Positions 1 to 60,538 are shown, numbered from the stretch's first letter. The stretch is 60,538 nt of DNA from a virus (IMGVR_UViG_3300005095_000141:1-60538); one strand, 5' to 3'. Notes: generated by a model from the letters alone, not told the origin. Made by a program: numbers and translations.

Positions 1-91
1 TAAGAACTCGTATATTATACCGTTGTATGCCCGTCTTACCGGTGCTGGTAGCATACGTGTTGCTGGCTATGCTTTTCTTGATAGGTGGAGT
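1..91. repeat. Terminal direct repeat (assembly overlap), copy 1
   Basis: Bases 1-91 are identical to 60448-60538, and the E2 ORF reads through the junction, so the genome is circular or permuted. Confidence 0.97.
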
Positions 92-1078
92 AATGCGTTG
101 ATTGAGAGGTTGTTGAGGGAGTATGATGTTGTGGCGTTTGCGTATGGGTATGGTAATGGCCCGGTTGTATGTAGTGTTGCTTCGCAGGTATATGGCGGCG
201 GCACCGGTGTTCCGGCTGTGCTTGTACGGTCGCCTAGTACTGAGGCTTCGAATGTAGTGGATGCACTTACCGGTTTCCGCGGTGTATGCTATGTTGATGA
301 TGACACGTTCTTCTGCAGTGTTACCGATAGCGATGGCCGTATGCATGTGTTTGGCAGTACGAATTTCTTCGAGTACCGGTCTAGCCGTGCCGCCGGCGTT
401 ATGGTGGTGCTTAGAAGGTATTTCGGCAGTGACAGGGTTGAGGACGCCTATGTGATGGAGACCCTGCGCGACCTGTTCGGCGCTGTGCAGAACACTGTTG
501 TTGCTGAGACCCGTCTTGTAAGCTACCGTGTTAACGCTGTGTTCGACGTTGTGCCGGGGCGTGAAAAGCTGTATATGGGCAGGTACTGTACCGACTATAC
601 CGGTGATGAGTGCCTGTTTGGACTGGAGCGCCTTGTTGATTTTACAGGTAACCGTGTAGTGCTTAGATATGATAGTAGGCGTGGCATGGAGTACGTTGTG
701 TTGCCGGAGCCGTTCCGTGTTACCGGTAAGCTTGTAGTGTACGCTGTTGGCAGTTCCAGTAGATTGAGCGATGAGGGCATACCGCTTAGCCTATACGGAG
801 ACCTGTGGATAAGGTTTGACAACCAGTTGTTCAGGCACCCGAACAACAGTGACAGCGGCTCGGTGTGTCTGGGAGGCTATGAGTTGCCACGCTATACTGG
901 TAGGGGTGATACTGTGGATGAGCTTAGACGTGTGCTTGACACCGCCGTGTCTATACTGAGCATGCCGACCAGTAATGCGTTTAACAGCTCGTTTATTGAC
1001 TATGTGCGTGAATACTGTGATACGCATAGGTGCGAGGAAGGAGTGTTCAGGATGGATGAGGCGTGGGGCACCGGGTAG
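1..1078 (+). CDS. E2/UBC-like ubiquitin-conjugating protein, 3' part (gene starts at ATG 60269 and spans the junction; 418 aa in total)
   Basis: FRHPNNSDSGSVCLG matches the UBC signature HPN-x-G-x-[IV]-C-L (Cys codon 866-868), followed by the UBC-like helix VLDTAVSILSMPTSNAFN. Confidence 0.8.
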   Translation, partial: KNSYIIPLYARLTGAGSIRVAGYAFLDRWSNALIERLLREYDVVAFAYGYGNGPVVCSVASQVYGGGTGVPAVLVRSPSTEASNVVDALTGFRGVCYVDDDTFFCSVTDSDGRMHVFGSTNFFEYRSSRAAGVMVVLRRYFGSDRVEDAYVMETLRDLFGAVQNTVVAETRLVSYRVNAVFDVVPGREKLYMGRYCTDYTGDECLFGLERLVDFTGNRVVLRYDSRRGMEYVVLPEPFRVTGKLVVYAVGSSSRLSDEGIPLSLYGDLWIRFDNQLFRHPNNSDSGSVCLGGYELPRYTGRGDTVDELRRVLDTAVSILSMPTSNAFNSSFIDYVREYCDTHRCEEGVFRMDEAWGTG

Positions 1079-1080
1079 TA

Positions 1081-1099
1081 TGTGCTCTGCATATACTGG
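1081..1099 (+). promoter_or_regulatory. 19-bp viral motif copy (upstream of Ubl)
   Basis: TGTGCTCTG-CATAT-ACTGG. Confidence 0.7.
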
Positions 1100-1126: not shown

Positions 1127-1333
1127 TTGCCTAAAGTAGTAATAGCCGGGAACGAGTACGAGGTAACAGGTACTGGCGAGGAGATAGTTAAGTTTATACT
1201 GGAGAAGGCGGCTGAGCTTGGCTGGGCAAGTGTACGCATATTTGCCGATGGGAAGGTTGTACCCGAGGGCGATGTACAGGCGCTTGAGCAGGCTTCGACG
1301 ATTGAGGTTGTTAAGGCGGACGTAGCGGCTTAG
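1127..1333 (+). CDS. Small ubiquitin-like (beta-grasp) protein with C-terminus DVAA
   Basis: About 68 aa with a beta-beta-alpha-beta-beta pattern (KVVIAG-NEYEV-helix-VRIFADGKVV-TIEVVK) and a free small-residue tail; directly follows E2; GGAGGTG RBS before TTG 1127 (track start 1118). Confidence 0.7.
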   Translation: MPKVVIAGNEYEVTGTGEEIVKFILEKAAELGWASVRIFADGKVVPEGDVQALEQASTIEVVKADVAA

Positions 1334-23099: not shown

Positions 23100-23531
23100 A
23101 TGCCAGTGATTGGTAAGCACATAATAGCAGATATGCATGACATTGCATGGATACCGAGTCTTGACGAGCTTGAAAGCATTGTTGTGGAAGCGGCTAAGAG
23201 TGCCGGTATGCATGTTGTTAGTACCGCCAAGTTTCTAGAGGGGAAGCCTGGGGACGAGTTCTATGGGCCGAGCGTGATAGTTATTGTTGTTGAGAGCCAT
23301 ATTGCTGTGCATATATGGGCTTCTTACAGGTTTGCAACTGTTGATGTATATACGTGTGGAGAGAAGAGTGACCCGTACAGGGCGTTTGCATACATACTGA
23401 GCGTGCTGAAGCCCGGTAAGGTTGAAATGTACTATTTGAACCGCAGTAGCGATAAGAAGCTATGTCCGATGCGTATGTCGTGGATGCACAGATATACCGA
23501 CGCCAAAACAGTTACCGGTGGCTGTGAATGA
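23100..23531 (+). CDS. speH: Pyruvoyl-dependent S-adenosylmethionine decarboxylase family (may act as arginine decarboxylase)
   Basis: GKHIIAD, ES/HIAVHIW autocleavage site and VDVYTCG. Confidence 0.88.
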   Translation: MPVIGKHIIADMHDIAWIPSLDELESIVVEAAKSAGMHVVSTAKFLEGKPGDEFYGPSVIVIVVESHIAVHIWASYRFATVDVYTCGEKSDPYRAFAYILSVLKPGKVEMYYLNRSSDKKLCPMRMSWMHRYTDAKTVTGGCE

Positions 23532-28444: not shown

Positions 28445-29253
28445 ATGTCACATGATAATAGATGGAATGCGTATGTTGCTGGATATTTTGATGGTGATGG
28501 TTCTGTTTGGATAGCACGTCATAAGTGTAAGCAGTGCAGGAGTGGTTATACGTATTTTTGGTGGTTGAGATTGTTTCTGTTGATAGGGATGTTCTTGACT
28601 TTATTGCTGGTGTTTATGGTGGCAAGGTTTATCCGAAGAGGAAAGTTGGTGCGTGGAAGTGGGTTGCATATAGTAATGTGGCGTATAATTTTTTGCTGAA
28701 CGTGTATAGGTATTTACAGATTAAGAGGAGACAGGCAGACCTAGCTATGATGTTTCAAGAAAGGATGATTAAGGGAAATAATTATATTTCTGATGATGAA
28801 ATGAAATGGCGTGAATGGGTTAGAAAAGAGATATCTGTGTTAAAGAAAATGTATGATGTTTTTGATTTTGCTGAGTTCGATACTGATGAAGAAGCTAGAC
28901 AATATATTGCTGGTTTGTTTGATGCGGAAGGATATGTAGGTGTATCTGAACGGAACAGAGGAAGTATGTATTTGCGAGTGGAAATTGGAAATAGATGTCT
29001 TAAATTACTTGAGTGGTTGAAAAGCATATATGGAGGGTCAATATACTGGAGCAGGAGGGCATACGTTTTTGAATTGGTATCGTTTGGTGCTAAGAGGTTG
29101 TTGGATGATGTTTTACCGTATTTGCATGTTAAGAAGGAGAGAGCTAAGATTGCACTTGAGTATCAGTCTATTACTAAGAAGGGGAGACAAGATTATGCTA
29201 TATTGAAAAGAAGAAAGAAGCTTGCTCGCTTATTGAAAGAACTTAATTATTAG
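28445..29253 (+). pseudogene. Free-standing double-motif LAGLIDADG homing endonuclease, split by a 1-nt frameshift
   Basis: YVAGYFDGDG lies in the frame from ATG 28445 and YIAGLFDAEG in the -1 frame; the junction is the T5 run at 28555-28559; AT-richer than flanks. Confidence 0.82.
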
Positions 29254-42835: not shown

Positions 42836-43927
42836 ATGTATGTTCCTGCATGGAGACCGGTTATGAGTGCTGATAGGAAGAAAAGATTTCTTGCGTATGT
42901 AAAGGACATACTTGGCGGTACTGTGTTTAGGAATGGAAAATACGTTGCAGAGCTTGAAAAGACATTTGCGAAGAGACATGGATATAGGCATGGAATAGCT
43001 GTTAGTAGTGGAGGAGCAGGTATTGAGGCGTTACTGTATTATTACCGTGTGCGTGGATATAGGAACGTTGTTGTGCCTGCGGTTAGTTTTTCCGCCGACT
43101 ATACGATACCGAGCGAGCTTGGATACAATGTTGTTGTAGTTGATACGTTGAAGGATAAGCCGTTGATAGACCCGGATAAGGTACGGAAGGCAGTGCTGTA
43201 CTATGGCAGGAGCGTTGTGATAGCGATACCGTATTTTGGATATGTTGACCGTGAATGGGTTAAGGCACTGCTTGAGGTGAAAGAGGAGAACCCCGGCATG
43301 GAGATTATATGGGATACTGCGCACTGCTATGGTGTGGAGCTTGGCCGATACGGTATTGACCCCGCAGTTATAAGCATGTACACGACCAAGATAAGCAGTG
43401 GAGACAATGCGGGCATGGTTCTTACCGATAATATGATGCTTAGGGATAAGCTGTTACTGATACGCAGGTACGGTATTGACGGTGACGGCAGAACCGTGTA
43501 TGTTGGGAACAACTTTGGTCTTAGCGAGTTTAGTGCGGCGTTCATACTGGCTGGAATGGATGATGCTGAGAAAAGAATAGAGTCTGGACGTGCAGGATAT
43601 GATGTGATTAAGGACGAGTTGCCCGTGTACCCGGAGAACGCTACTGATGACTACAACTACTATGTGGTTGCAGTTCGCGTTAACGATAGGAAGGAGGCTG
43701 AGAAGGCGCTGATTGAGAACGGTATAGAGCCTTGGACACACTATGTACCGGATACTGTTGATAGGGAGAAGGTGCGTGTGCTTCTACGTGTATTTGTGTT
43801 TCCCGGCAAAACAGTTAATGCGCACAGGTTTGTAGAGCAGAACGTGTTTTTGTCCCCCGGCATACTGTATGAGTACCGTGTGCTTGAAAAAGTAGTGGAT
43901 ATTCTTAGACCGTATGCGAGGTGGTAG
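42836..43927 (+). CDS. DegT/DnrJ/EryC1 PLP-dependent sugar aminotransferase
   Basis: G.YV.ELE..F, AVSSG, VVVPAVSF, DTAH and S.YTTK. Confidence 0.88.
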   Translation: MYVPAWRPVMSADRKKRFLAYVKDILGGTVFRNGKYVAELEKTFAKRHGYRHGIAVSSGGAGIEALLYYYRVRGYRNVVVPAVSFSADYTIPSELGYNVVVVDTLKDKPLIDPDKVRKAVLYYGRSVVIAIPYFGYVDREWVKALLEVKEENPGMEIIWDTAHCYGVELGRYGIDPAVISMYTTKISSGDNAGMVLTDNMMLRDKLLLIRRYGIDGDGRTVYVGNNFGLSEFSAAFILAGMDDAEKRIESGRAGYDVIKDELPVYPENATDDYNYYVVAVRVNDRKEAEKALIENGIEPWTHYVPDTVDREKVRVLLRVFVFPGKTVNAHRFVEQNVFLSPGILYEYRVLEKVVDILRPYARW

Positions 43928-44898
43928 ATGTGGAGAACGTGCTTGTAACAGGAGGTTCTGGACAGATAGCTTCGTATATAGTTGAGGAGTTCGTTAGGCG
44001 TGGATACAGGGTATTTGTACTTGACCCTGCACCGCCGCTTAGGGAATGGGCTGGCCTGATACATGATGATAAGATAGTGTATAAGCATGGTACAAGCTAT
44101 GATGTGCACCAGATATTCGACCTTGCAACATACCGGTTTAAGTATATTGTTGACTGCGGTGCATTGCTTGGAAGCGAGGAGCTAACGCCTAGGCTTGACA
44201 GTGCCGCCGCATACGACTTTATTGGTAGCAGGAACGTGTTCGAGCTTGCCAGATACATTGGTGCGAAAGTATTCCATATAAGCATAGAGTTTGCAGGGTA
44301 TGGCTTTACCGACGGCTATAGTGTGACGAAGATGGCGGCGCTTAGGACGGCACAGGAATACGCTAAGAAGTACGGAGTAAATATTGTTGCGGCGACCGTG
44401 CACCACATATTTAGCCCTAGGCAGAAACTGTTACCGGCTAGAAAGATTATGCCGACACTGATATCGTATGCAATGACAGGTGCTAAGTTCAGAATATTTG
44501 GAAGCCCGGACAAGATGATGGATTTACTGTATGCCGGCGACTTTGCAAAGGTTGTAGTGGAGCTTCTGGAGTCTGATAATACGAAGACGGCCGATAAGCA
44601 CGTATATGATATTGGGAGTGGAGAAGGAATACGGCTTGAAGACCTTGTGATTCGCACATACTATGAATGCGGGCATGAGCCGAACTATACTGTGACCGAA
44701 GACTTTAGATTCCAGAGGCCAGACCCGTACCGTGTAGCTAGGAATGACTGGGTTGACGATGTTGAACATGTACCGATGCTTAGGAGCATAGATAAGATGC
44801 TGAACTGGCTTGTACGACAGTATAAGAAGAAATATAGTATGGAGGACTTTGAGCTAGCAGTAGAGGTTTACGAGCAGAGGCATAGATGGGGTGTATAA
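43921..44898 (+). CDS. NAD-dependent sugar epimerase/dehydratase
   Basis: VTGGSGQIA and YSVTK. Confidence 0.88.
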   Translation: MVDVENVLVTGGSGQIASYIVEEFVRRGYRVFVLDPAPPLREWAGLIHDDKIVYKHGTSYDVHQIFDLATYRFKYIVDCGALLGSEELTPRLDSAAAYDFIGSRNVFELARYIGAKVFHISIEFAGYGFTDGYSVTKMAALRTAQEYAKKYGVNIVAATVHHIFSPRQKLLPARKIMPTLISYAMTGAKFRIFGSPDKMMDLLYAGDFAKVVVELLESDNTKTADKHVYDIGSGEGIRLEDLVIRTYYECGHEPNYTVTEDFRFQRPDPYRVARNDWVDDVEHVPMLRSIDKMLNWLVRQYKKKYSMEDFELAVEVYEQRHRWGV

Positions 44899-45601
44899 CG
44901 TGAAGTGGTGCCACGGAGACCCTAGATGCCCGTATTATTTTGAGCAACTGGTGAAGATAGCCAAGTACATGGTGGATACTGTTGGAAGGGATGAGGGTAA
45001 GTCAATACTGGATGTTGGTGCGGGGGATGGTTTGCTTGGTCATCTGCTACGCATATATGGGTTTAGAGGACGCATAGACGCTGTTGAGATAGATAATAAG
45101 AAAGCCTATGTGCTGAAGCAGAGCGGTATATACGGCCGTGTGTTTGAGAATGATTTTCTGGAGATGCGGTATTTGGAGTACGTTAACTACCATAACAGCT
45201 ATGATGCTGTTGCGATGATAAACTTTCTGTATGCATTTGGAGGAGTACTGGTGAACCTTGTGCTTGACACGGCTAGTTTGCTTGTGAAGAGACGTGGACA
45301 CGTGTTTTTTACGTTTACGAACAGGGAGTCGCCGATAACGAAGTTTCTGGCAGAGCGTGGTATTAAGAAGTCGCATACGCAGAGCAGAGAAGAAATAATT
45401 GATGCGTGTTTTAGGGCAGGTCTAGACCCTAGGTTTGTGCACGACCTTAGCATGTGGATAGTGCCGTTCAGTACCGGAGATAAGTGGACTGGAGAGCTAT
45501 ATACTGGTGCGAAGGCTATGCTGAAATGGATTAAGTTGGCTGTTAAGTATAGGAAGTTCGGGCCGATAGAGTATTTTGTCGACGCAGTACCGTATTACTG
45601 A
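44891..45601 (+). CDS. Class I SAM-dependent methyltransferase
   Basis: ILDVGAGDG, AVEID and YDAV. Confidence 0.88.
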   Translation: MYNVKWCHGDPRCPYYFEQLVKIAKYMVDTVGRDEGKSILDVGAGDGLLGHLLRIYGFRGRIDAVEIDNKKAYVLKQSGIYGRVFENDFLEMRYLEYVNYHNSYDAVAMINFLYAFGGVLVNLVLDTASLLVKRRGHVFFTFTNRESPITKFLAERGIKKSHTQSREEIIDACFRAGLDPRFVHDLSMWIVPFSTGDKWTGELYTGAKAMLKWIKLAVKYRKFGPIEYFVDAVPYY

Positions 45602-45611
45602 GGCGGTGTGC

Positions 45612-47138
45612 ATGGATGACCTTGGAAAACTGAGAGTACTTGTGACACAGTATTATTATTCAGCGAGAGACCTTACCGGGGTAAGCATGTTTAACTGGTA
45701 TAGGGCGCTGTATAAGGCGAATGAAGATAGGATGATTATGTATTTGGAGGTGCCGAGGGAATGGTGGAAGGAATGGGGAAAAGCATTTGTGGAGTATGAT
45801 ATTGATGATGATGAACTTGAAAAATACAGGAAAATGATTGGAGATAATGTAAGGTTTATACGTCTTGCCAGAGCTAGGGAGATGAAGGAGTGGGAGACAT
45901 ACATACCGACTGAGGATGAGCACAGGTTTGTAAGGAACATTCGTTCTATGCCGATTGATGTTATACTGAGCGGTACGTATGGCTATACGTGGTTGCCTGT
46001 TATTTCACAGCTTGAAAGGAAGAGTGCATATTATAGTGAGGTACGTGTACCGGTTATTCATTTTCAGCACGAGACGTGGAGAGACTATATTAGCATGCAG
46101 ATGCTTGGAACTAGGCAGTTAAAGACCATAATACTGATGAACATGGTGTTGTCTGATATGGTGTTTGTATTTAACGAGCCTGACAAGATAGCTGTGCTTG
46201 AGGAAGCTAAGAAACTTCTGTCGCATTCTGTCTATAACGATTTGAAGAAGAAGATAGAGATTGTGCACCCGATATACCCGTACTACGAGATTGACGATAA
46301 GACCGAGAGCTATATTGAGAGTAGGAAGGAACGGATTAGAAGAGAGAAGAAGGTTGTGTTTTACCATGCTGGCACGCCTGAAAAGAAGAGAAGGTTGCAC
46401 GTATTTGCCGATATATTGAAGAAACTGGTTGATGATGGTAGTGTAGATGCTAAGTTTAAGATGATAATAAGTAGTGCTGGTACGTATGAGAAAGAGCTAA
46501 AGAAGTTTTTTGGGCATGAAAGCATTGAAATGCTGTTTGCATTGCCTAGGCATAGGTTGATTGAAGAGATGCGTACTGCTGATATTGCTGTGTGTCTGAG
46601 CATTTACTACGGTACTGGTCTTGCGTGTCTAGAGGCTAGTGCTAGTGGTATGCTACCAATATACTGGAGGATACCGGATACTGTTGATAGGGTTCCGCCG
46701 AAGTACCCGTACCGTGTGGTTGATGAGAAGGAGCTGGAAGAGGTTGTTAAACAGCTTGGTGACCCGGCAGAGTTTCTTAAGGTGTATGATGAGTGGGCGC
46801 ACAAGGTTGCTAGGCATGTACAGAAGAATTTCGGTAGGGAAGAGGCTAGAAGGATATTTGACTTGATAGTGAAGCTGAGGAAACGATTTGTTGATGATTA
46901 CAGCGAGAAAAAGATACTGTTGTGGGATGCGTTTAAAGACGCAGTTGACAGCATACCGAGTGGATGGAAGGTTGACCATGAAAGGCTGATTTCGATTGTT
47001 TCTGCTATGACGAAGAAGGGCAAGAGGCCGAAAGAGATTAGGTCGCTTATTACCGAGATTGGACTGCGTATTCTTGCACATAAGTATGGACTGCGTGATA
47101 TAGGGGATATAGACAAGATTGTGTGGTGGAAGCCATGA
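45612..47138 (+). CDS. GT-B (GT4-like) glycosyltransferase
   Basis: AG...KKR and ADIAVCLS..YGTGLACLEA..SG. Confidence 0.75.
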   Translation: MDDLGKLRVLVTQYYYSARDLTGVSMFNWYRALYKANEDRMIMYLEVPREWWKEWGKAFVEYDIDDDELEKYRKMIGDNVRFIRLARAREMKEWETYIPTEDEHRFVRNIRSMPIDVILSGTYGYTWLPVISQLERKSAYYSEVRVPVIHFQHETWRDYISMQMLGTRQLKTIILMNMVLSDMVFVFNEPDKIAVLEEAKKLLSHSVYNDLKKKIEIVHPIYPYYEIDDKTESYIESRKERIRREKKVVFYHAGTPEKKRRLHVFADILKKLVDDGSVDAKFKMIISSAGTYEKELKKFFGHESIEMLFALPRHRLIEEMRTADIAVCLSIYYGTGLACLEASASGMLPIYWRIPDTVDRVPPKYPYRVVDEKELEEVVKQLGDPAEFLKVYDEWAHKVARHVQKNFGREEARRIFDLIVKLRKRFVDDYSEKKILLWDAFKDAVDSIPSGWKVDHERLISIVSAMTKKGKRPKEIRSLITEIGLRILAHKYGLRDIGDIDKIVWWKP

Positions 47139-48619
47139 GGATACTTGTAATACCGCATGTGGCGAGCAAGAACCTTGAAGGAGAGAGTGTGGCGCTGGTG
47201 TTTGCAGAGTATATGAAGAGCATTAAGAAATATGCTGAGAAAAACGGTGAAAAAGTATGGTTTTACGTTGTGTTGCCCAGAGGAGTTACCGGAGAGAAGA
47301 TATATGAGGATGTAGGGAACACTACGGTTGTGTTTGAGAACAGACGCCTTAAGCAGTTCTATACCGAGATTGACGCTGTGGATGTTGATACGCTTGAACT
47401 GTTCGGTGCACGTACCGGTATTTACCCTGTTGACGCAGTTATAACGAGTAAGACTGGATTTGCATTGATGATGACGAAGTACCTTAGTGATTTTAGGTAT
47501 GCGCAGGAGAGTCTTGACTACCTTAGGATACCGGTAGTGATAATTGAGGACAGGGCATTTGGAAGGAAGAACACGCATAACCTTGTAGATGGAGTGGAGT
47601 TTATGCTTAGAGCGATGAGCTATGCAACGCATTATACCGTGTTTATGGATGAGTTCGAGTTCGAGGAAGCGTATGATGCCAGCAAGCAGTACTTGTCTAA
47701 GGCGATGCTACGACGCTTTATGAAGCACGCAATAATGTACCCCGGTGTACGGTGCAGAGAGATAGACAGGATAATACATGGTGTGAAAAAACGGGAGAAG
47801 TTCACGCTGTTCTGGGGAGGAAGGATTTCTGCACAGAAGAGACCCGGCTTTGTACTGGACGTGTACAATAGGTTTTACGAGCTTGGATACGATGTCGACA
47901 TAATTGTTACTACACCGCACGAGGCAGACGTGAAAACCGATGTAATACCGAAAGCACTGAGGAGAAACAGCAAGATAAAAGTACTGTATAACGTAAGCAG
48001 AGAAGAATACCTTAAGCTACTGGCTAGTAGCCATGTGTTTCTGAGTGGTAGCTTGTACGAGGGCTTCACGATTGGTCATACCGAGGCTGGCTATACTGGT
48101 GTGCCTGTGATTGTACCGAATAGGCCGTGGAGCAGATTGATATTTGGCAGTGACTATAAGCTGATGTATGACCCTAGGAGCGAGAAGGAGGCACTGGCAG
48201 TACTGATATGGTGTTATGAGAACTATGATGAGTGCGTGGAGATTAGTAGGAAGACTAGGGAGAGGATAAGGGAATTGTTTGATGCGGAGAAGACGCATGA
48301 GATACTGTATAATGTGGTGAAGAAAGCATATACTGAGACCGTGCTTGACAATATTGACCAGCTAATAATAGGCAGAGGGATAAAAGAGGTGCTTGACACA
48401 GTGATTTCAGAGGCTAGGAGCAGAGGATACGATAAGATTTCGCTTAGGATGCTGATAATGCTGATGAAGAAGTATATGCGTGTAAGCAACAGATGGACTG
48501 ACCCCCGCCTAGGAATGCCTAGTATGTGGGCGCTGTACCAGTACATTAAGAACGTGCTTGGATACCGTGACACATGTGATTCAGAAGAGCCTGTTTTTAA
48601 TATTGAAGTAGATAATTAA
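47135..48619 (+). CDS. GT-B (GT4-like) glycosyltransferase, paralogue
   Basis: GGRISAQKRP and VFLSGSLYEGFTIGHTEA..GVPVI. Confidence 0.82.
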   Translation: MRILVIPHVASKNLEGESVALVFAEYMKSIKKYAEKNGEKVWFYVVLPRGVTGEKIYEDVGNTTVVFENRRLKQFYTEIDAVDVDTLELFGARTGIYPVDAVITSKTGFALMMTKYLSDFRYAQESLDYLRIPVVIIEDRAFGRKNTHNLVDGVEFMLRAMSYATHYTVFMDEFEFEEAYDASKQYLSKAMLRRFMKHAIMYPGVRCREIDRIIHGVKKREKFTLFWGGRISAQKRPGFVLDVYNRFYELGYDVDIIVTTPHEADVKTDVIPKALRRNSKIKVLYNVSREEYLKLLASSHVFLSGSLYEGFTIGHTEAGYTGVPVIVPNRPWSRLIFGSDYKLMYDPRSEKEALAVLIWCYENYDECVEISRKTRERIRELFDAEKTHEILYNVVKKAYTETVLDNIDQLIIGRGIKEVLDTVISEARSRGYDKISLRMLIMLMKKYMRVSNRWTDPRLGMPSMWALYQYIKNVLGYRDTCDSEEPVFNIEVDN

Positions 48620-48638
48620 ACGTGTATGGGTGGTCTGC

Positions 48639-49424
48639 ATGCAAGACATAAAACGTGAAATAAAAGAAGTTCCTGTGTCCCAGATTATACCGCTTGAAGA
48701 GAACATTAGAGAGATGAGTGACGAGGAATTTAATGCGCTGTGCAAGAGCATAGAGGAAAACGGGTATGCGGAGCCGATACAGGTTGTTGAGACGCCTGAC
48801 GGTAAATACCGTATAGTGAACGGCCAGCACAGGTATGAAGCACTTGTAAATGTGTTTGGAGTTGATACCGTAACAGTTATAGTGCTTGGCAGGATGTGTA
48901 AGGAAGGAGAGGACCCTGAGAAGGATGGTTGCTGGGACGAGTACCGTTACTGGGCGGAGGTGATAAGGCTTAACAACATACGTGGTGACTGGAAGAAGCC
49001 GGCGCTTGCAAAGAAGATATTTGAGCTGTGGGAGTACTATAAGAAGAAAGGATATGACAGGCTTGACCTGAAGGAGCGTCTAGGTTTTACCGGGGCTAAG
49101 ACGTTCTTTGACAAGTTGTTTGAGGATGTGAAGAAGTCGTTACCGAAGGATATTGCAGAGGAGCTTGAGAAGAAAAAGGACAAGATAGATACTGTGGAGG
49201 ATTTGAGCAGGATAATAAACGAGATAATGAGGAAAAGCGGGAACACCGTGAAGTACGGATACCTGATATTCAGCCTTGGAGGAAAACAGCACATACTGGT
49301 ACGTGCGTTGCCGGAGCTGTTCTCGGTGGTGCGGGATATACTGGACTACTGCAAGTATAATGGGAGGAATGCGTCTGAAGTACTGTATGAACTGCTTAGT
49401 GGATGGGAGGAGAAACTGCAATGA
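48639..49424 (+). CDS. ParB-N/sulfiredoxin-domain protein
   Basis: N.R.MS..EF..L..SIEENG..EPI.V...YRIVNGQHR. Confidence 0.85.
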   Translation: MQDIKREIKEVPVSQIIPLEENIREMSDEEFNALCKSIEENGYAEPIQVVETPDGKYRIVNGQHRYEALVNVFGVDTVTVIVLGRMCKEGEDPEKDGCWDEYRYWAEVIRLNNIRGDWKKPALAKKIFELWEYYKKKGYDRLDLKERLGFTGAKTFFDKLFEDVKKSLPKDIAEELEKKKDKIDTVEDLSRIINEIMRKSGNTVKYGYLIFSLGGKQHILVRALPELFSVVRDILDYCKYNGRNASEVLYELLSGWEEKLQ

Positions 49425-50314
49425 CGCTGACCGTGCTTCTTACCGGTAGCGAGGGTGTTCTTGGGAAGAGAATAAAGGAACTGTTGCCGAAGATGATTGA
49501 TGCGAGGATAATAGGTCTTGACATAAAGGAGACTGCCGATATTGTGGGTGATATACGGAACTATGATGTACTTGTGTCCGCTATGAAAACATATAGACCG
49601 GATGTTGTACTGCATTTTGCGGCTTTGACAAGCCCGATAGAGAGTACGTACCGTGAAATAGAGTATTATGACGTGAACATGATTGGTACTGCGAAGCTTG
49701 TGAAGATAGTGCCGAGGGATGCCCTGTTTATATTTGCGAGTAGCTGTGCAGTATATGGGAATGCGTACGATGTTCTTAAGAGACCGGTGATTCTTAGCGA
49801 TGCATGGAGGTTTACGCCGCTAAGCCCGTATGGTCTGAGCAAGCTGTTTGCAGAGAAAATAATACGTAGCCATAGAGACGATGCGGTTATACTGAGGTTT
49901 GGAAACGTGTATAGCCCGTATGACGATAAGTATGTGTTCTGGAAGATGTTTAGCAACAAGGTGTTCGTTCTTAACGACCCTGATGCTGTAAGGGATTTTG
50001 TAAGTGTGGATGACCTGATACGGCTGATTGTGAAGATAATACGTAGATGGGATGCGGGCGAATACGTTGGAGGTACGTATAATGTTGGTGGTGAACCGCT
50101 TAAGATGGCTGATGTGGTAGAGATTGCTAGGAAAAAGGCTGGATGGCCGGAGAAAGTGGTTATTGGCAATGGTTTGAAGCCTGGAGAGTTTAAGCGCATG
50201 GTTCTGAACATTACAGCTACTAGGGATGCATTTGACTGGTCGCCTATTGACAGGCTGGAAAACTATATAGATGTTCTAGACCGATACTTTAGAATGAGGT
50301 CTGCGGGGAGATAA
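49421..50314 (+). CDS. NAD-dependent epimerase (GalE-like)
   Basis: LTGSEGVLG, HFAA, ASSCAVYG, YGLSK, RFGNVY and RDFV. Confidence 0.9.
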   Translation: MTLTVLLTGSEGVLGKRIKELLPKMIDARIIGLDIKETADIVGDIRNYDVLVSAMKTYRPDVVLHFAALTSPIESTYREIEYYDVNMIGTAKLVKIVPRDALFIFASSCAVYGNAYDVLKRPVILSDAWRFTPLSPYGLSKLFAEKIIRSHRDDAVILRFGNVYSPYDDKYVFWKMFSNKVFVLNDPDAVRDFVSVDDLIRLIVKIIRRWDAGEYVGGTYNVGGEPLKMADVVEIARKKAGWPEKVVIGNGLKPGEFKRMVLNITATRDAFDWSPIDRLENYIDVLDRYFRMRSAGR

Positions 50315-55835: not shown

Positions 55836-55854
55836 TGTGCTTTGAGAATACCGG
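55836..55854 (+). promoter_or_regulatory. 19-bp viral motif copy (upstream of JAB)
   Basis: TGTGCTTTG-AGAAT-ACCGG. Confidence 0.75.
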
Positions 55855-55878
55855 ATAAACTGCATTGGGCTGGTAGGT

Positions 55879-56598
55879 ATGCGTGTTAAGAAAATACGTG
55901 CTAGTTCGTCTAAATGGAGTACTGGGTATAAGCCTGTAACTGAATGCCCGTATATGAAGATTGGTAAGCTGATAGTGCTTGTTGATTTTTCGTTGTTCGA
56001 GAAGATAAGCAGGCTTGCAGACGAGATTGATACCGAGTTCCTGATGTATGCTAAGTACAAGAAGCTTGGTGAAAATGAAATATACGTTGTTGATGACGTG
56101 TTTGTACCGAAACAGAAAGCTAGTGCTACGTTTGTAGAGGTAGAGGACAAGATACCGGAGAAGTTTGCTACTGAGACTGTTGTTATACATAAGCACCCGC
56201 CGAATATAGAGTCGTTCAGCAGAACAGATTATGAGTACATTAATGCGAATAACGATGTTAGTCTGCTGTGGTGTGATGGAGAGTTTACTGATGCTACTGT
56301 AAGGCGCAAGCTACCGTGTGGTAAGACTGCTATTGCGAGTGCAGATACTGTTAAGATGTATGTTGTTCTGCCTACTGGTAAGAAGGTTGATAAGCTGATA
56401 GATGGTATTAAGAAATGGGTTGAGGAGGCGAAGAAGAAGATAAAGCAGGAATATGTGCATGTGGCGAATGGCAAGACTATTCTTGACTATAGCGATTATG
56501 GTGGGTGGAGGACTAGCCTGTACGACATACCGGATTATGATGATGAGATAGAGGAGCTGTATAATGGAGAGATTAGTAGGATGATGCGTAGAAGGTGA
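55879..56598 (+). CDS. JAB/MPN+ metallo-isopeptidase (Ubl deconjugase)
   Basis: TEF (catalytic Glu), VPKQ and VIHKHP....FS.TD (JAMM HxH-x7-S-x2-D). Confidence 0.85.
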   Translation: MRVKKIRASSSKWSTGYKPVTECPYMKIGKLIVLVDFSLFEKISRLADEIDTEFLMYAKYKKLGENEIYVVDDVFVPKQKASATFVEVEDKIPEKFATETVVIHKHPPNIESFSRTDYEYINANNDVSLLWCDGEFTDATVRRKLPCGKTAIASADTVKMYVVLPTGKKVDKLIDGIKKWVEEAKKKIKQEYVHVANGKTILDYSDYGGWRTSLYDIPDYDDEIEELYNGEISRMMRRR

Positions 56599-56939
56599 TG
56601 TTTGTGGATAGATGGGACTTTGTGTATTGGTTTAGGAGACCGGTTGGAAGTACTGCTGATGTTGTAGAGGCGGTTGCTAGTGACGGTGATAAATGGTATG
56701 TTGTAACTATGGGTGGAAGGATTAACGAGAGAGGGGAATACGAGATTATGGGAGAACCGATACCGATTGATGGGCCGAAGGATGACCCTGTAGATATGCT
56801 GTGTAGTCACCTAGAGTTTTACAGGGAGATTGGTATTGTTGGGAAATGGGATAAGCAGGTTGAGAAGTTCTGTAGCGATACCGGTGTAGATGATGAGATT
56901 GTGTTTATGAAGCACTTGAGGATAAGGAGGTCTAGGTGA
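56595..56939 (+). CDS. Hypothetical protein
   Basis: Coupled to the JAB gene. Confidence 0.65.
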   Translation: MMFVDRWDFVYWFRRPVGSTADVVEAVASDGDKWYVVTMGGRINERGEYEIMGEPIPIDGPKDDPVDMLCSHLEFYREIGIVGKWDKQVEKFCSDTGVDDEIVFMKHLRIRRSR

Positions 56940-56946
56940 TAGTGGA

Positions 56947-57144
56947 ATGAGTGGAAACGATAGTGCTGTTATAGAGGATTGGTGTGGAGAAAAATACGAT
57001 GTGAACGAGATACTTGTAGAAGTAGATAGCGTAGAGGATATACTGAGGAGACTGTGCAATCCATATAAGAGAATAGGTGATGTGCATGTGTGTGTAATAG
57101 AATGTAGTGCGTTTGCATTTAGAGTTAGAGGTGATAGTGCTTGA
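56947..57144 (+). CDS. Hypothetical protein
   Basis: AGGTGA RBS. Confidence 0.55.
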   Translation: MSGNDSAVIEDWCGEKYDVNEILVEVDSVEDILRRLCNPYKRIGDVHVCVIECSAFAFRVRGDSA

Positions 57145-57260
57145 TAACGGTTCCGATGGATGAATGTGTTAAGAAGTGCTTGGAGAAGAATGGCTGGACA
57201 CAGGAGAACATGATACGGTGTATGCATAAGTGTGCGGAGGAGGTGAAGTCTGCATGGTGA
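57141..57260 (+). CDS. Tiny twin-Cx3C protein (below the track cutoff)
   Basis: MITVPMDECVKKCLEKNGWTQENMIRCMHKCAEEVKSAW; GAGGTGA RBS; TTGA overlap. Confidence 0.45.
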   Translation: MITVPMDECVKKCLEKNGWTQENMIRCMHKCAEEVKSAW

Positions 57261-57646
57261 AATGGCGTGTTGACGATATGGATGATTTGGGAGACAAGGT
57301 CTGGGTGACCGTTATATTTGAGATAGATAAGGATGACTGGGTTGAGAGGTCTGTGTCTAGGTATAGTGAACTGCGTGATAAATGGACGAAGCTGTACCGT
57401 AAGGAGCTTGACATATATAGGAAGCTTGGTGGAAGAACTGGAGATGTTGTTGAGGTGTATAAGGACGGCACGGTTGTTATTGAGTATGGTGGTTTGCTGG
57501 GGAGGAAGCGTGTGAAGAAAGTGGTGTCTGCTGAGCTTAAACGCATTATTGATGAGAGAGCTGTGGTTGAGAAGGCTGTTAGCAATATTGTTGACAGGCT
57601 TGCTGAGAGGATTTTCGAGGAACTGTGCGGTGATAATGGTTATTAG
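57254..57646 (+). CDS. Hypothetical protein
   Basis: GGAGGTGA RBS. Confidence 0.65.
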   Translation: MVKWRVDDMDDLGDKVWVTVIFEIDKDDWVERSVSRYSELRDKWTKLYRKELDIYRKLGGRTGDVVEVYKDGTVVIEYGGLLGRKRVKKVVSAELKRIIDERAVVEKAVSNIVDRLAERIFEELCGDNGY

Positions 57647-57679
57647 TTGTTTGTTGTATAGTTTGTAGTGGTGGTAGGT

Positions 57680-58066
57680 ATGCCGTTTACTGGTAGGAGT
57701 GCGTTGAACCGTATTGTTGGTTTGCTTGAGGGTGTGCTTCGTGTTGCTAGTGATGTTGTAAGCGGTAGTTCTGGCAGTGTTTCTACTGGTGATGCTGAGG
57801 CTGTTGTTGCTAGTGTTGATTTGTCTGGCTGTGTGCGTGGCGTTGTGTTGGTTGCTAATACTGGTGGTAATGGTGTGGATGTTGTTGTGTCTGCTGTTGT
57901 TCCCGGCGGTAGTGTTTCGTACCAGTTGTTTAGCGGTAGTGTTGCGGCTGGTGCTGTACAGCGTGTGGATGTTGATTTTCCCTGTAAGGTCAGTGTGTTT
58001 GCTAAGAATAGTACGAGTGGTGCGGGCAGTACTGTTGTTGTTGACTGGGTTGGCTGGAAAGCCTAG
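57680..58066 (+). CDS. Small beta-rich protein (possibly structural)
   Basis: ATG after GGTGG; G/V/S-rich. Confidence 0.5.
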   Translation: MPFTGRSALNRIVGLLEGVLRVASDVVSGSSGSVSTGDAEAVVASVDLSGCVRGVVLVANTGGNGVDVVVSAVVPGGSVSYQLFSGSVAAGAVQRVDVDFPCKVSVFAKNSTSGAGSTVVVDWVGWKA

Positions 58067-58160
58067 CACTGTTTTTTAGCCTGTACTGAACAATGTGTGC
58101 CGGGCAATGTACAGGCGCCGGACACAGACCACCATATAGAATACAGGAGAGGAGAACACA

Positions 58161-58511
58161 ATGCCCAGACACATACACACAATAATAACAGAGAAACTAT
58201 ACTGGGTAATAGACAGTATTAGGGGCCGGTACGGTGTTAGTAGTGGTGCTTTGCTAGAGTTTGTTTTCTGGGCTTGCTGGGAGGATAGTGGTTGTAGGCG
58301 GCGTGTTTTGGACTGGCTTGCTGGCCGTGGTGTTCGTACTGGTAGTACTGGTGGTGCTGGCGATACTGGTTCTGGTTCGGCTGGTTCTGCTGGTGGTGTG
58401 GATAGTACCGGTAATGCTGGTGGTGGTGGTGCTTCGTCTTTTGCTGAGTGGTTGGTGCGTGGGTGGGGTGACCCGTTGAACCAGTTGTTGTTTGAGCTTG
58501 GCGGTGACTAG
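58161..58511 (+). CDS. Putative RHH-like regulator
   Basis: MPRHIHTIITEKLYWVIDSIRGRYGVSSGALLE has a beta-alpha-alpha pattern; GGAGAGGAG RBS. Confidence 0.5.
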   Translation: MPRHIHTIITEKLYWVIDSIRGRYGVSSGALLEFVFWACWEDSGCRRRVLDWLAGRGVRTGSTGGAGDTGSGSAGSAGGVDSTGNAGGGGASSFAEWLVRGWGDPLNQLLFELGGD

Positions 58512-58523
58512 GCTGGTTTGTGC

Positions 58524-58542
58524 TGTGCTTTGTTTTTACTGG
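58524..58542 (+). promoter_or_regulatory. 19-bp viral motif copy (upstream of E1)
   Basis: TGTGCTTTG-TTTTT-ACTGG. Confidence 0.75.
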
Positions 58543-58570
58543 TATTTACTGGGTTTGTGGGTGGTGTGTT

Positions 58571-59416
58571 GTGTCTGGTCGGGATTTGCTGTGGTTTCTT
58601 AGGCGGGCGGCGGCTGGAGGGTCTGTTTCTGGCAGTACTGGTTCTGTGGCTGGTGATTCTAGGTCTGCTGGTGCAGACGATGCTGGCGTTGCTGTTAATA
58701 CTGGTACTGGTGGTTCTGGTGCTGGGTTTGTGTTTCCTGGTGTGCGTGCTGTTGTGTTTGGGTTGGGTGGTGTTGGTTCGTGGCTTGTGTTTCTTGCTGG
58801 TGGTTACCGGTTGTTTGGTGGTTTTGTATTGGTTGATGGTGATGTGTGGGAGCCGGTGAATAGTAATAGGTTGTGGTTGTACCCGTTTGGGGGGTTGTTG
58901 GGCCGGTGTGTTGCTGGTGGCCGGTGTTTTAAGGCTGGTTTGGCTGGTGGGTGGCTTGTGCGGCGTGCTGGCTATACTGGTGGCCGGGTAAGGGTTGTTC
59001 CCCGGTATGTGCGTGGGGTGGATGATGTGCGTGCTGTTTTGTCCCGTTACTGTACCGGTACCGGCGGTGACGGTGCTGGTTATCGTTACCCGTGTGTTGT
59101 GTTTGACTGTGTTGATTCGCCGCGTGTGTCTGCTGATGTTCGGTATGCTGGTGTTGGTGCTGGGTTGCCTGTTGTTAGTCTTCATTTTGACGGTGGTAGT
59201 GTTACTGGTGAGGTGTTTTTGCCGGGGTCTGGGGCTGGTGTTTTTAGTGTTGGTGGTGCTCGTGGTGGGTATGTGGCTGGTAGTGTTGCGGGGTCTAGTG
59301 TGTTGGCGGCTTGGCTTGGCGTGGTGCTTGCTTACCGTGTTCTTACTGGGGCTGTTGGTGGCTATGTGTTGGTTGGTGGTGATACTGGGTCTGGGCTTCG
59401 TGTTTTTGGCTTGTAG
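58571..59416 (+). CDS. E1/ThiF-family ubiquitin-like activating enzyme
   Basis: VFGLGGVGS (GxGxxG), VDGDVWEPVNSNR (D-x-D..NxNR), the conserved K and FDCVD. Confidence 0.85.
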   Translation: MSGRDLLWFLRRAAAGGSVSGSTGSVAGDSRSAGADDAGVAVNTGTGGSGAGFVFPGVRAVVFGLGGVGSWLVFLAGGYRLFGGFVLVDGDVWEPVNSNRLWLYPFGGLLGRCVAGGRCFKAGLAGGWLVRRAGYTGGRVRVVPRYVRGVDDVRAVLSRYCTGTGGDGAGYRYPCVVFDCVDSPRVSADVRYAGVGAGLPVVSLHFDGGSVTGEVFLPGSGAGVFSVGGARGGYVAGSVAGSSVLAAWLGVVLAYRVLTGAVGGYVLVGGDTGSGLRVFGL

Positions 59417-59417
59417 T

Positions 59418-59436
59418 TGTGCTTTGTTTTTACCGG
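59418..59436 (+). promoter_or_regulatory. 19-bp viral motif copy (upstream of the unknown ORF-E2 pair)
   Basis: TGTGCTTTG-TTTTT-ACCGG. Confidence 0.75.
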
Positions 59437-59437
59437 T

Positions 59438-59501
59438 ATCTGTACTGTATCTGTAACTGTACTGTATTGTATCTGTATTGGTATGGTATGTATTGGTATG
59501 T
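59438..59501. repeat. Short (TGTAY)/(TATGG)-type repeats
   Basis: tgtactgtatctgtaactgtactgtattgtatctgtattggtatggtatg; similar to 2970-3020. Confidence 0.55.
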
Positions 59502-60262
59502 GTTTGGGGGTGTTGGTTGGGTTGTTTGTGCGGAGTGTGGATGTTGGTGGTGTTAGGCGGGCTGGTTCTGGGCGTGTTCCTGGTCGTTACCGGGTTGGTG
59601 ATTGGGGTGTTGAGTGGTTGTTTGTTCTTGATGGTGCTGGTGGGTTCGGTGTTGTTGCCGGGTTTTTGCTTGGTTTGGGGGGTTCTGGTGTTGTTGTTGT
59701 TGGTAGTGGTGGTGTGCCGGGTGTTGTTGCGCCTTGTTATGGTGTGCCGGGGGGTGCTGGGCTTGGTGGTTGGCCGTCTTGTTTTGCTGGTTTGGGCGGT
59801 GTTGTTTCTTACCGGGTTGTTGCTGAGTGGTTGTCTTCCGGTGTTGTGTTTCAGGGTGTTGGGGATGTGTTTGTTGTTGATGTTGGGCTTGGGTTGCCGG
59901 TTTCTTCTTGGCTTTACCGGGGCGGTGTGGGGCTTGTCTTTACCGGTGTTGATGGGGGTGTGTATGTGTTTGTTGCTAGGAGGCTGTATCTTTCTGATTT
60001 GCGCAGGATAGGCCGTGTGTCTGGCGGTGGTGATGGATGGTTTGTGCGTGGGGAGGAGTGCGGTGCGCTGTGCTCTGGTTTAAACGTACCCGGTGCCCTT
60101 ACCGGTGATGAGGGCTTGTTCGGGGGGTATGGCTTGGCTGGATGGGTTAGCAATGTGTTGCTGGAGGGTATTGTTACTGTGCTGAGGCGTACTAGTGATA
60201 GGGCGGTGATGTACCGGCTTGACACTGGTTCTGGCGGTGTTGAGAGACGTGTTTGGAGGTGA
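59498..60262 (+). CDS. Unknown lysine-free protein between E1 and E2
   Basis: Open frame 59417..60262 whose stop overlaps the E2 RBS; start uncertain. Confidence 0.55.
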   Translation: MCLGVLVGLFVRSVDVGGVRRAGSGRVPGRYRVGDWGVEWLFVLDGAGGFGVVAGFLLGLGGSGVVVVGSGGVPGVVAPCYGVPGGAGLGGWPSCFAGLGGVVSYRVVAEWLSSGVVFQGVGDVFVVDVGLGLPVSSWLYRGGVGLVFTGVDGGVYVFVARRLYLSDLRRIGRVSGGGDGWFVRGEECGALCSGLNVPGALTGDEGLFGGYGLAGWVSNVLLEGIVTVLRRTSDRAVMYRLDTGSGGVERRVWR

Positions 60263-60268
60263 CCGTGT

Positions 60269-60538
60269 ATGAGCTGGAGTGTTGAGAGCTGGTATGCATG
60301 GTTTTCCCGCCGGGATACCGGTGCTGGGCGTGGTACTGGTGGTGATGCGGGGTCTGGGCCTGTTAGGACGCTGAGCTTTAGGCGTGCTGGTGCGGACGTT
60401 GTGTTTGACCTGTACGGTGATGTTAACGACAGGTTTGTGCGTGCTGTTAAGAACTCGTATATTATACCGTTGTATGCCCGTCTTACCGGTGCTGGTAGCA
60501 TACGTGTTGCTGGCTATGCTTTTCTTGATAGGTGGAGT
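60269..60538 (+). CDS. E2/UBC-like protein, 5' part (continues at base 92)
   Basis: ATG 60269 follows RBS GGAGGTGA; the frame MSWSVESWYAWFSRR...RAVKNSYIIPLYARLT is open and continuous with ORF 23..1078. Confidence 0.85.
   Translation, partial: MSWSVESWYAWFSRRDTGAGRGTGGDAGSGPVRTLSFRRAGADVVFDLYGDVNDRFVRAVKNSYIIPLYARLTGAGSIRVAGYAFLDRWS
60448..60538. repeat. Terminal direct repeat (assembly overlap), copy 2
   Basis: Identical to bases 1-91. Confidence 0.97.

Follow-up and report, generated by a model that had tools for sequence, protein, structure and literature searches.

A complete tailed-virus genome with a likely gene set of its own for ubiquitin-like conjugation and deconjugation

IMGVR_UViG_3300005095_000141:1-60538, a stretch of 60,538 nt that was analyzed at its full length and is called the window below, is a complete tailed-virus genome with archaeal-type replication genes. 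We found that this virus likely encodes a set of its own for attaching and removing a ubiquitin-like protein (Ubl), consisting of a minimal ThiF-type E1, an E2-like protein, the Ubl and a JAB/JAMM-type metalloprotease, all on the + strand. The set is a divergent member of a cassette that recurs among uncultured viruses, a variant of the prokaryotic Ubl-E2-E1-JAB kind, and the virus probably tags proteins itself. A preliminary description of the sequence had proposed a five-part system made up of these four and one gene without an assigned role. The four named parts held up as members of JAB, ThiF/E1, UBC-like E2 and beta-grasp Ubl families that travel together in viral contigs; the whole UBC fold expected of the E2-like protein was not demonstrated.

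The motifs on which that description relied were all present. The JAB gene (55879..56598; 239 amino acids, aa) encodes the JAMM motif as E53...H104-K-H106-x7-S114-x-x-D117, and the E1 gene (58571..59416; 281 aa) encodes GLGGVG, DGD..NSNR and DCVD. The E2-like gene had been said to appear whole only when the contig is circularized. The terminal bases 1..91, a direct terminal repeat, are identical to 60448-60538, leaving a unique length of 60,447 bases (a multiple of 3), and on joining the ends we obtained an open reading frame (ORF) of 418 aa that starts with ATG at 60269 and stops at 1078, its first 90 codons occupying 60269..60538 and the remainder 2..1078. The UBC-like segment lies at ~815-1020, with HPN (residues 339-341) at 836-844 and the codon for Cys349 of GSVCLG at 866-868, and the protein ends DEAWGTG.

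Related cassettes were found in other viruses, whose loci are numbered from L002 onward. A single-sequence search with the JAB protein returned one relative (42% identity), and a two-member JAB profile led to five viral loci. In L002, L003, L004 and L006 the JAB relative directly follows a short ThiF gene (Pfam ThiF, expectation value (E) 1e-22 to 1e-24), which is itself preceded by a gene for a ~290-aa or a 707-aa protein, with a further 90-aa ORF upstream in L002 and L003. The 707-aa protein, beside ThiF and JAB in L004, carries HPNVSSDGSVCLG; it matched the tail of the E2-like protein by BLASTP (E 2e-5) and Pfam UQ_con below threshold (E 2.9e-4).

A degenerate DNA pattern for HPN..G.VCLG occurred in 12 viral stretches, of which five encode proteins built like the E2-like protein of the window; the rest were a giant-virus UBC, four jumbo-phage proteins of 100 aa, a protein of another architecture and a chance match. 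The five relatives are 360-710 aa long and carry the motif ~70-90 residues from the end. ThiF was present in all five records and JAB of the same type in four; the genes were adjacent in four of the five, in the orders E2-E1-JAB, E1-E2-JAB, Ubl-E2-E1-JAB and E2-E1-JAB. Three more loci of this layout, L037, L038 and L039, came from a profile scan; in L037 a Ubl/zinc-ribbon gene, E1, E2 and JAB are followed by the portal gene. The search of viral records for the same gene neighborhood, which the preliminary description had put forward as a check, thus gave at least eight other records with the E2 family beside ThiF, usually together with JAB and a small Ubl. Its statement that prokaryotic systems of this type are cellular was too narrow, since the same kind of cassette stands in at least eight other IMG/VR viral records. 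When viral contigs were searched with a small alignment, just one contig was returned, and this was already known. A pattern scan of cellular genomes gave no clear cellular copy of the viral cassette among at least 120 stretches, with 80 loci analyzed, and says nothing firm on absence from cells or on the host; among the cellular matches listed (L042-L121), most were Planctomycetota UQ_con proteins of 200-390 aa with HPN..G.VCLG.

The catalytic signature of E2 enzymes, comprising HPN, a cysteine ~8 residues on and the following helices LL..N.D..Y/N..A, is represented in the window by HPNNSDSGSVCLG plus SILSMPTSNAFN. Compared with a four-member viral family that did not contain it, the E2-like protein aligned over 65 columns (hhalign 91.8%, E 7.3e-7). 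The family without this protein had 96 matches in the PDB at E <= 0.01 (best 2.5e-5), and all 60 listed were E2 enzymes; with the protein included, the best match was UBE2C (2.7e-6), and 59 of the 60 listed were E2s. The UBE2C alignment spans HPN, the cysteine and the LL..N.DS..N helices. The family also aligned with 10 proteins that all pass Pfam UQ_con, namely eight Planctomycetota proteins, a Methanothrix protein (L093) and the giant-virus UBC (hhalign 97.2%, E 4.5e-11). By these sequence comparisons the protein is a member of a UBC-like family, and its last ~130 residues carry a predicted eukaryote-like HPN...Cys UBC-type catalytic segment. In the ESM Atlas the tail was nearest to viral hypothetical clusters (score 0.94), one of them with Prok-E2_D on 11% of its members, which we take as a lead only; the Atlas model of the protein had a predicted local distance difference test score (pLDDT) of 0.47 and a template modeling score (TM) of 0.41 to a UQ_con cluster.

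Two other features of these families were observed. The C-termini of the E2 family share an (E/D)-V-x-W-type tail, which reads DEAWGTG here (1055-1075) and GEVWTNG, EVVWRT, DVLWR or KDVW in others (L031 5031-5050, L033 5610-5633, L037 5430-5450, L038 5190-5210), and the 259-aa protein encoded between E1 and E2 likewise terminates in ERRVWR (60240-60259). The tail may be a docking peptide. In addition, a second family of ~290 aa, encoded beside ThiF and JAB genes (L002 8478-9332, L003 6341-7228, L006 6057-6938), has an invariant HYH...CWGDF, an EVWG tail and no Pfam match. It was considered as part of the same E2 family and rejected, the comparison being not significant (hhalign E 0.33); it may be another E2-like type.

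The E1 carries GxGGxG (residues 64-69), D89xD91, N97..R100, K121, R132 and D179-C-x-D182, and in the alignment it keeps every residue that is invariant among 10 viral ThiFs. With its own sequence excluded from that family, it aligned over 161 columns (residues 59-253) at hhalign 96.8% and E 2.9e-10. The viral ThiF family in turn matched ThiF best in the PDB (8.7e-21) and also MccB, MoeB, Uba1, NAE, UBA5 and Cap2 (5e-15). The product of 58571-59416 is, on this evidence of sequence, a member of the ThiF/E1 family. It is the most divergent member of that family (18-28% identity); phmmer against PDB sequences gave nothing better than PaaA (E 0.92), and a word-indexed homologue search retrieved only the protein itself. 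There is no cysteine past D182 of its DCxD motif, and the only invariant cysteine column across the 10 viral E1s is that of DCxD. Because the E1 lacks a cysteine after DCxD, a classical E1~Ubl thioester step is unlikely.

The JAB protein itself had no Pfam match. However, E53, P77, Q79, H104, H106, S114 and D117 were invariant in all 10 aligned viral sequences, and relatives approached or passed the Pfam Prok-JAB cut-off of 25 bits (L002, 27.6; L003, 26.9; L006, 23.0, below it), with E ~1e-5 to 1e-6 among those that matched; the relative in L004 had no Prok-JAB match. The eight best PDB matches of the JAB family profile were to the AMSH-like JAMM deubiquitinase Sst2, weak at E 0.014-0.18, and BubCD was a marginal match (E 0.64). 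Aligned in this way, the 55879-56598 product is classed as a member of the JAB family.

The Ubl gene (1127..1333) encodes 68 aa from TTG 1127 or 71 aa from GTG 1118 and ends ...KADVAA; the TTG is favored as the start because GGAGGTG stands just upstream. The preliminary description had expected a beta-grasp fold, and structure prediction bore this out. AlphaFold2 with a 6-row alignment gave a confident model (pLDDT 84.5, predicted TM (pTM) 0.67) whose elements run strand-strand-helix-strand-strand-short helix-strand, followed by a tail that is free. All listed Foldseek rows were SUMO, ubiquitin, NEDD8, ISG15 or Ubl domains (best E 1.2e-3, TM 0.5-0.62), the Caldiarchaeum ubiquitin (6fj7) among them, and the 12 best VIA rows were all ubiquitin-superfold domains (Z 5.6-6.7, middling for a 71-residue model). 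Lower VIA matches included 8tyz_B (Z 5.2), a Bil-type Ubl from a bacterial E1-E2-Ubl complex, and, at Z 4.7-4.9, MoaD (itself Z 4.8-4.9) and TtuB. As modeled, the 1127-1333 product is a beta-grasp Ubl.

The Ubl also aligned with small cassette ORFs of L002, L003, L033, L037 and L038 and with the C-terminal domain of a 202-aa protein upstream of the L004 E2. The tails of these relatives are AG (three), AA (one), KKG (one) and a run-on into a zinc ribbon (one). In the alignment, ...DVAA of the window stands with ...DIAG, ...DVAG, ...DEAG and the ...NKAA of the L004-type virus, whose E2 is closest to the one here. The last residue of the tail seems, from the aligned sequences, to vary by lineage: three cassettes have Ala-Gly, whereas this virus and the L004 type have Ala-Ala. 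Fusions of the Ubl to more domains occur in other viruses, with a C-terminal zinc ribbon in L037 (3275-3712) and an N-terminal part in L004 (6047-6655).

We next consider how often such matches arise by chance. Of 300 shuffles of the genome in 3-kb blocks, read in six frames, 0 contained the strict UBC pattern and 0 the composite ThiF pattern; the bare JAMM pattern was common (0.47 per shuffled genome). Profiles built without the sequences of this virus, run against 631 six-frame ORFs, matched only the four proposed genes (E2 4.5e-6, E1 7e-7, JAB 4.6e-39, Ubl 2.2e-5). Direct scans of the Pfam, PHROGs, PADLOC and NCBIfam libraries gave a sole match, Pfam ThiF below threshold.

Several observations weigh against a conjugation set. 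For the E2-like protein, alignment to UBC is limited to ~65 residues, those around HPN-Cys and in the helices that follow; the first, N-terminal half of the fold went undetected, the sequence alignments ending at the HPN loop. AlphaFold2 of a 358-aa part with a 5-row alignment was unusable (pLDDT 31.8). The protein had no direct match in Pfam (E <= 1; UQ_con and Prok-E2), PHROGs, PADLOC or NCBIfam, none in PDB sequences by phmmer and none among 1.84 billion representatives by exhaustive HMMER; a word-indexed search of 5.8 billion proteins gave no homologue and a single-sequence search of viral contigs no related locus. Pfam UQ_con and Prok-E2 were without a match in all five close members of the family as well. 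Both the E2 relatives and the UQ_con comparison set had been picked by a DNA pattern derived from the protein's own HPN..G.VCLG motif, and because the relatives were collected in this way, part of the similarity scores is built in. Independent of that selection are the helices past the cysteine, the matches to solved E2s that were not so selected, and the neighboring ThiF, JAB and Ubl genes.

For the other parts, the Pfam ThiF match of the E1 covers 47 residues at E 3.7e-4 and 20.2 bits, under the cut-off of 28.1, and the gene lies in a G/T-rich stretch that is open in any frame, with a coding score below that of ordinary genes. The Ubl ends in Ala-Ala rather than Gly-Gly, and neither it nor its family profile had a sequence match to beta-grasp families in Pfam or the PDB. 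A close relative, at 42%, is available for the JAB only. The JAB gene stands apart from the others by 2 kb and five ORFs, whereas its relatives have compact cassettes, and no RING E3 was found in this virus.

The composition of the genome bears on how the E1 region is read. The C content of the + strand is 15.3%, with a GC skew of +0.18 to +0.51 across all 2-kb bins, and the most extreme stretch is 58.0-60.3 kb, which is poor in A and C, rich in G and T and has an AT skew of -0.58. It is because of this extreme poverty in A and C that all three + frames are open there and that the ORFs are rich in Gly, Val and Leu. A codon-usage model trained on 17 Pfam-supported genes favored the frame of the E1 and the 259-aa gene throughout 58.0-60.3 kb (+0.19 and +0.20 per codon), the other frames being negative, and a gene caller called the 281-aa E1 and its 259-aa neighbor.

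The layout of the genes showed a shared element. The motif TGTGCTTTGnnnnWAnnGG occurs at 17 sites against 0.34 expected, 16 of the 17 on the + strand and 2-60 nt upstream of ORF starts; the sites include 4204, 5551, 7411, 10615, 15228, 21438, 34995, 36361, 50935, 55836, 58524 and 59418. The 19-bp motif probably serves one class of genes as a promoter or operator element. The claim that all five genes are preceded by it was borne out for four, with copies on the + strand at 55836..55854 (24 nt upstream of the JAB start), 58524..58542 (upstream of E1), 59418..59436 (upstream of the 259-aa gene) and, with one mismatch, 1081..1099 (upstream of the Ubl gene, then GGAGGTG). The E2-like gene has no copy of its own and starts 6 bases past the stop of the 259-aa gene, so the two probably share one transcript.

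The 259-aa gene itself (59483..60262, + strand, length as called) encodes a Gly/Val-rich protein that forms a singleton cluster as a called gene. It had no similarity to E1, to E2 or to the E2 family, and in the Atlas its best score was 0.77 with a model pLDDT of 0.25, giving no relative or fold. It was considered as an inactive E1-like domain and as a second E2-like protein, and the comparisons gave no support for either. Between JAB and E1, five small ORFs of 114, 65, 138, 132 and 116 aa occupy 56595..58511 on the + strand. The last of these, at 58161-58511, directly precedes E1; its product contains a linker rich in Gly and Ser, and its end, ...LFELGGD, places a single residue after Gly-Gly. 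It may be a second substrate for JAB and E1; its comparison with the Ubl family by hhalign was not significant.

IMG/VR lists the record as a genome with direct terminal repeats and rates its completeness at 100%, and 89 ORFs tile the + strand, the only strand read, nearly without gaps. Pfam, with which 67 of the 89 ORFs were scanned (54 of these in a second batch), identified the tailed-virus genes for tail tube, portal, prohead protease and terminase (TerL) and replication-type genes for a family B DNA polymerase (PolB), an archaeal/eukaryotic primase large subunit, a Rad51/AAA protein and a Cas4-like nuclease. The best named relative of TerL was that of Halogranum tailed virus 1, at just 25% identity (E 7e-27), and a TerL search of viral contigs gave no close viral relative. 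The genome contains no tRNA genes; a sigma-70 promoter scan of it was at chance level, and terminator-like sites in it are due to the G/T-rich composition. Elsewhere it encodes an S-adenosylmethionine decarboxylase (23100-23531; Pfam E 1.6e-24), a LAGLIDADG endonuclease ORF (28534-29253) and a seven-gene sugar-modification cluster at 42836-50314 with a DegT aminotransferase, two epimerases/dehydratases, a methyltransferase and two GT1 glycosyltransferases, inside which a ParB_N protein is also encoded.

Taken as a conjugation and deconjugation set, the genes suggest the following sequence of events. The minimal E1 would bind ATP and adenylate the C-terminal alanine of the 68-aa Ubl, and since the E1 has no cysteine after DCxD, the activated Ubl would be handed straight to Cys349 of the E2-like protein. 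The first ~280 residues of the latter may hold the E1 or select targets. The E2~Ubl thioester would then be resolved onto lysines of viral or host proteins, and the JAB protease would remove or edit the tag and may also strip host-made tags. The product of the 259-aa gene would be accessory. According to the preliminary description, such tagging might disable defenses or redirect proteolysis. A wider proposal, which we regard as doubtful, is that an HPN-type UBC lineage circulates in archaeal and bacterial tailed viruses together with a minimal E1 that lacks a catalytic cysteine and with Ala/Gly-ended Ubls and that it serves offensive tagging of host proteins in the course of infection.

The same chemistry could serve defense, with Bil-like tagging crippling superinfecting competitor viruses and not the host; we consider this purpose unlikely. 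Defense genes often ride on mobile elements, which counts in its favor. The characterized bacterial relatives, Bil and CBASS Cap2/Cap3, act against phages, as excerpts of two reports describe (PMC10557695; 10.1101/2022.03.31.486616). However, no integrase or sign of a resident lifestyle was seen among the ORFs scanned, and PADLOC models gave no match (0 families for 10 virus proteins, from a 2023 library that may not include Bil models). In addition, the viral contigs that share the cassette differ greatly in size and composition, which fits a role in the infection cycle itself.

The studied defense systems resemble the viral set in parts. Bil (BilABCD; operon classes 6C/6D of Iyer, Burroughs and Aravind 2006) is described, in the portion of Chambers et al. 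(PMC10557695) used here, as a cellular and antiviral system of Ubl, E2, JAB deubiquitinase and E1, whose E2 has a CEHH motif but not the C-terminal helices seen in canonical E2s and whose E1 is multidomain. The virus has the same four parts and a single beta-grasp Ubl, to which the Bil-type 8tyz_B is similar (Z 5.2). It differs in that its E2 segment has HPN and post-cysteine helices, its E1 is a ~230-residue single-domain core without a post-DCxD cysteine, its Ubl ends in Ala-Ala, and the genes are viral and ordered JAB ... E1-unknown-E2-Ubl. Type II CBASS shares an E1 adenylation domain, an E2 cysteine and reversal by JAB (Cap2/Cap3), and according to part of Ledvina et al. (10.1101/2022.03.31.486616), Cap2 adenylates a C-terminal alanine, the tail of E. 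cloacae CdnD being ...GRFA. Cap2, however, is an E2-E1 fusion that acts on a cGAS-like enzyme and not on a beta-grasp Ubl, whereas E1 and E2 here are separate genes with another between them; the 67 ORFs scanned included no CD-NTase, and PADLOC gave no match. A precedent for the E1 is BubCD, an E1 without the catalytic cysteine, as set out in an excerpt of Ye et al. (PMC11601596). The Bub system differs in its serine oxyesters, peptidase-E1 fusion and serine protease, whereas the virus has an invariant E2 cysteine and a JAB protease.

A sulfur-carrier system of the ThiS/MoaD-ThiF-JAB type, comparable to CysO/Mec+/MoeZ, would use the same genes otherwise: the E1 would turn the Ubl into a thiocarboxylate for thiolation of DNA, tRNA or a cofactor, and conjugation would not be the role of the HPN-Cys protein. 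We judge this to be improbable. An E1, a Ubl and a JAB without an E2 are a known sulfur-transfer arrangement (covered in part of PMC1779556), the E1 is of the short ThiF/MoeB type, with ThiF, MccB and MoeB the best PDB matches of its family, and the Ubl has MoaD and TtuB among its structural matches; in L037 the second gene upstream of the cassette is PAPS-reductase/QueC-like. These points are offset by a UBC-signature protein with an invariant cysteine beside E1 in every related cassette and by a Ubl that structurally matches ubiquitin, SUMO and NEDD8 best, not ThiS or MoaD. Furthermore, no rhodanese, cysteine desulfurase or sulfur-acceptor enzyme was found among the ORFs scanned with Pfam, and the tails are Ala-Ala or Ala-Gly, not Gly-Gly. 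The archaeal SAMP system (SAMP, UbaA, JAMM1) is not known to have an E2, and its modifiers end in Gly-Gly; its small beta-grasp modifier, ThiF-type E1 and JAMM protease are like those of the virus.

That the set is a decaying, non-working remnant, with the E1 and the 259-aa gene drifting under G/T bias and at most a free JAB and Ubl left, is in our view highly improbable, for although the 58.0-60.3 kb composition (AT skew -0.58), the divergence of the E1, its score below the Pfam cut-off and the very low confidence of the 259-aa and E2 models would agree with it, the E1 keeps all the catalytic residues invariant in the viral E1 family, no stop or frameshift falls across 281, 259 and 418 codons, the coding frame is favored all along, and each gene block retains the gene-start motif of the virus.

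Returning to a virus-encoded conjugation set, we compared it with what is described for archaea and for other viruses. Caldiarchaeum subterraneum and Asgard archaea reportedly have eukaryote-like ubiquitin operons with ubiquitin, E1, E2, a RING E3 and an Rpn11-like JAMM protease. The HPN-type UBC signature, JAMM protease, E1 and ubiquitin-fold modifier in an archaeal setting are shared with the window; here, in contrast, the genes are viral and no RING E3 was found; the minimal E1 has no post-DCxD cysteine, an N-terminal extension of ~280 residues is present in the E2, and the Ubl ends in Ala-Ala. The Nidhogg viruses of Helarchaeota, which are uncultured archaeal viruses, carry three ThiF/E1-like genes; their authors interpret these as a means of using ubiquitin-type modification and propose that they harness host E2 and Ubl (Rambo et al., 10.1101/2021.07.29.454249). 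In the consulted part of that preprint only E1 homologues are reported, whereas E1, E2, Ubl and JAB are all viral here. Borgs carry many JAMM "de-SAMPylases," according to a section of PMC12660748.

For phages, the consulted part of Iyer, Burroughs and Aravind 2006 (PMC1779556) places E1/E2/JAB clusters in cells and gives only a tail-assembly pair of Ubl and JAB. That pair, proteins I (Ubl) and K (JAB plus NlpC/P60) of phages lambda and T1, resembles the window in being a phage-encoded Ubl and JAB but has no E1 and no E2 and is part of the tail gene block. A jumbo-phage review (PMC7824862) mentions ubiquitin twice only, in another sense, and the Asgard virus preprint of Medvedeva et al. contains nothing on such cassettes. 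A full-text literature search, with subscription journals and supplements outside its scope, turned up no paper reporting a full Ubl-E2-E1-JAB cassette from a bacterial or archaeal virus.

Ubiquitin-type conjugation in prokaryotes has so far been known as cellular and, where tested, as antiviral. Here a complete virus genome holds the writer (E1 and E2), the tag (Ubl) and the eraser (JAB), and it departs from the studied systems in three ways: its E2 segment is HPN-type and joined to a long N-terminal part, its E1 has no post-DCxD cysteine and its tag ends in alanine. If an HPN-type lineage does circulate among tailed viruses, they could have carried UBC-type conjugation from one domain of life to another, with implications for the origins of eukaryotic ubiquitin. 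A conjugation set of this kind would mean that prokaryotic viruses also use protein tagging, as eukaryotic viruses exploit ubiquitin.

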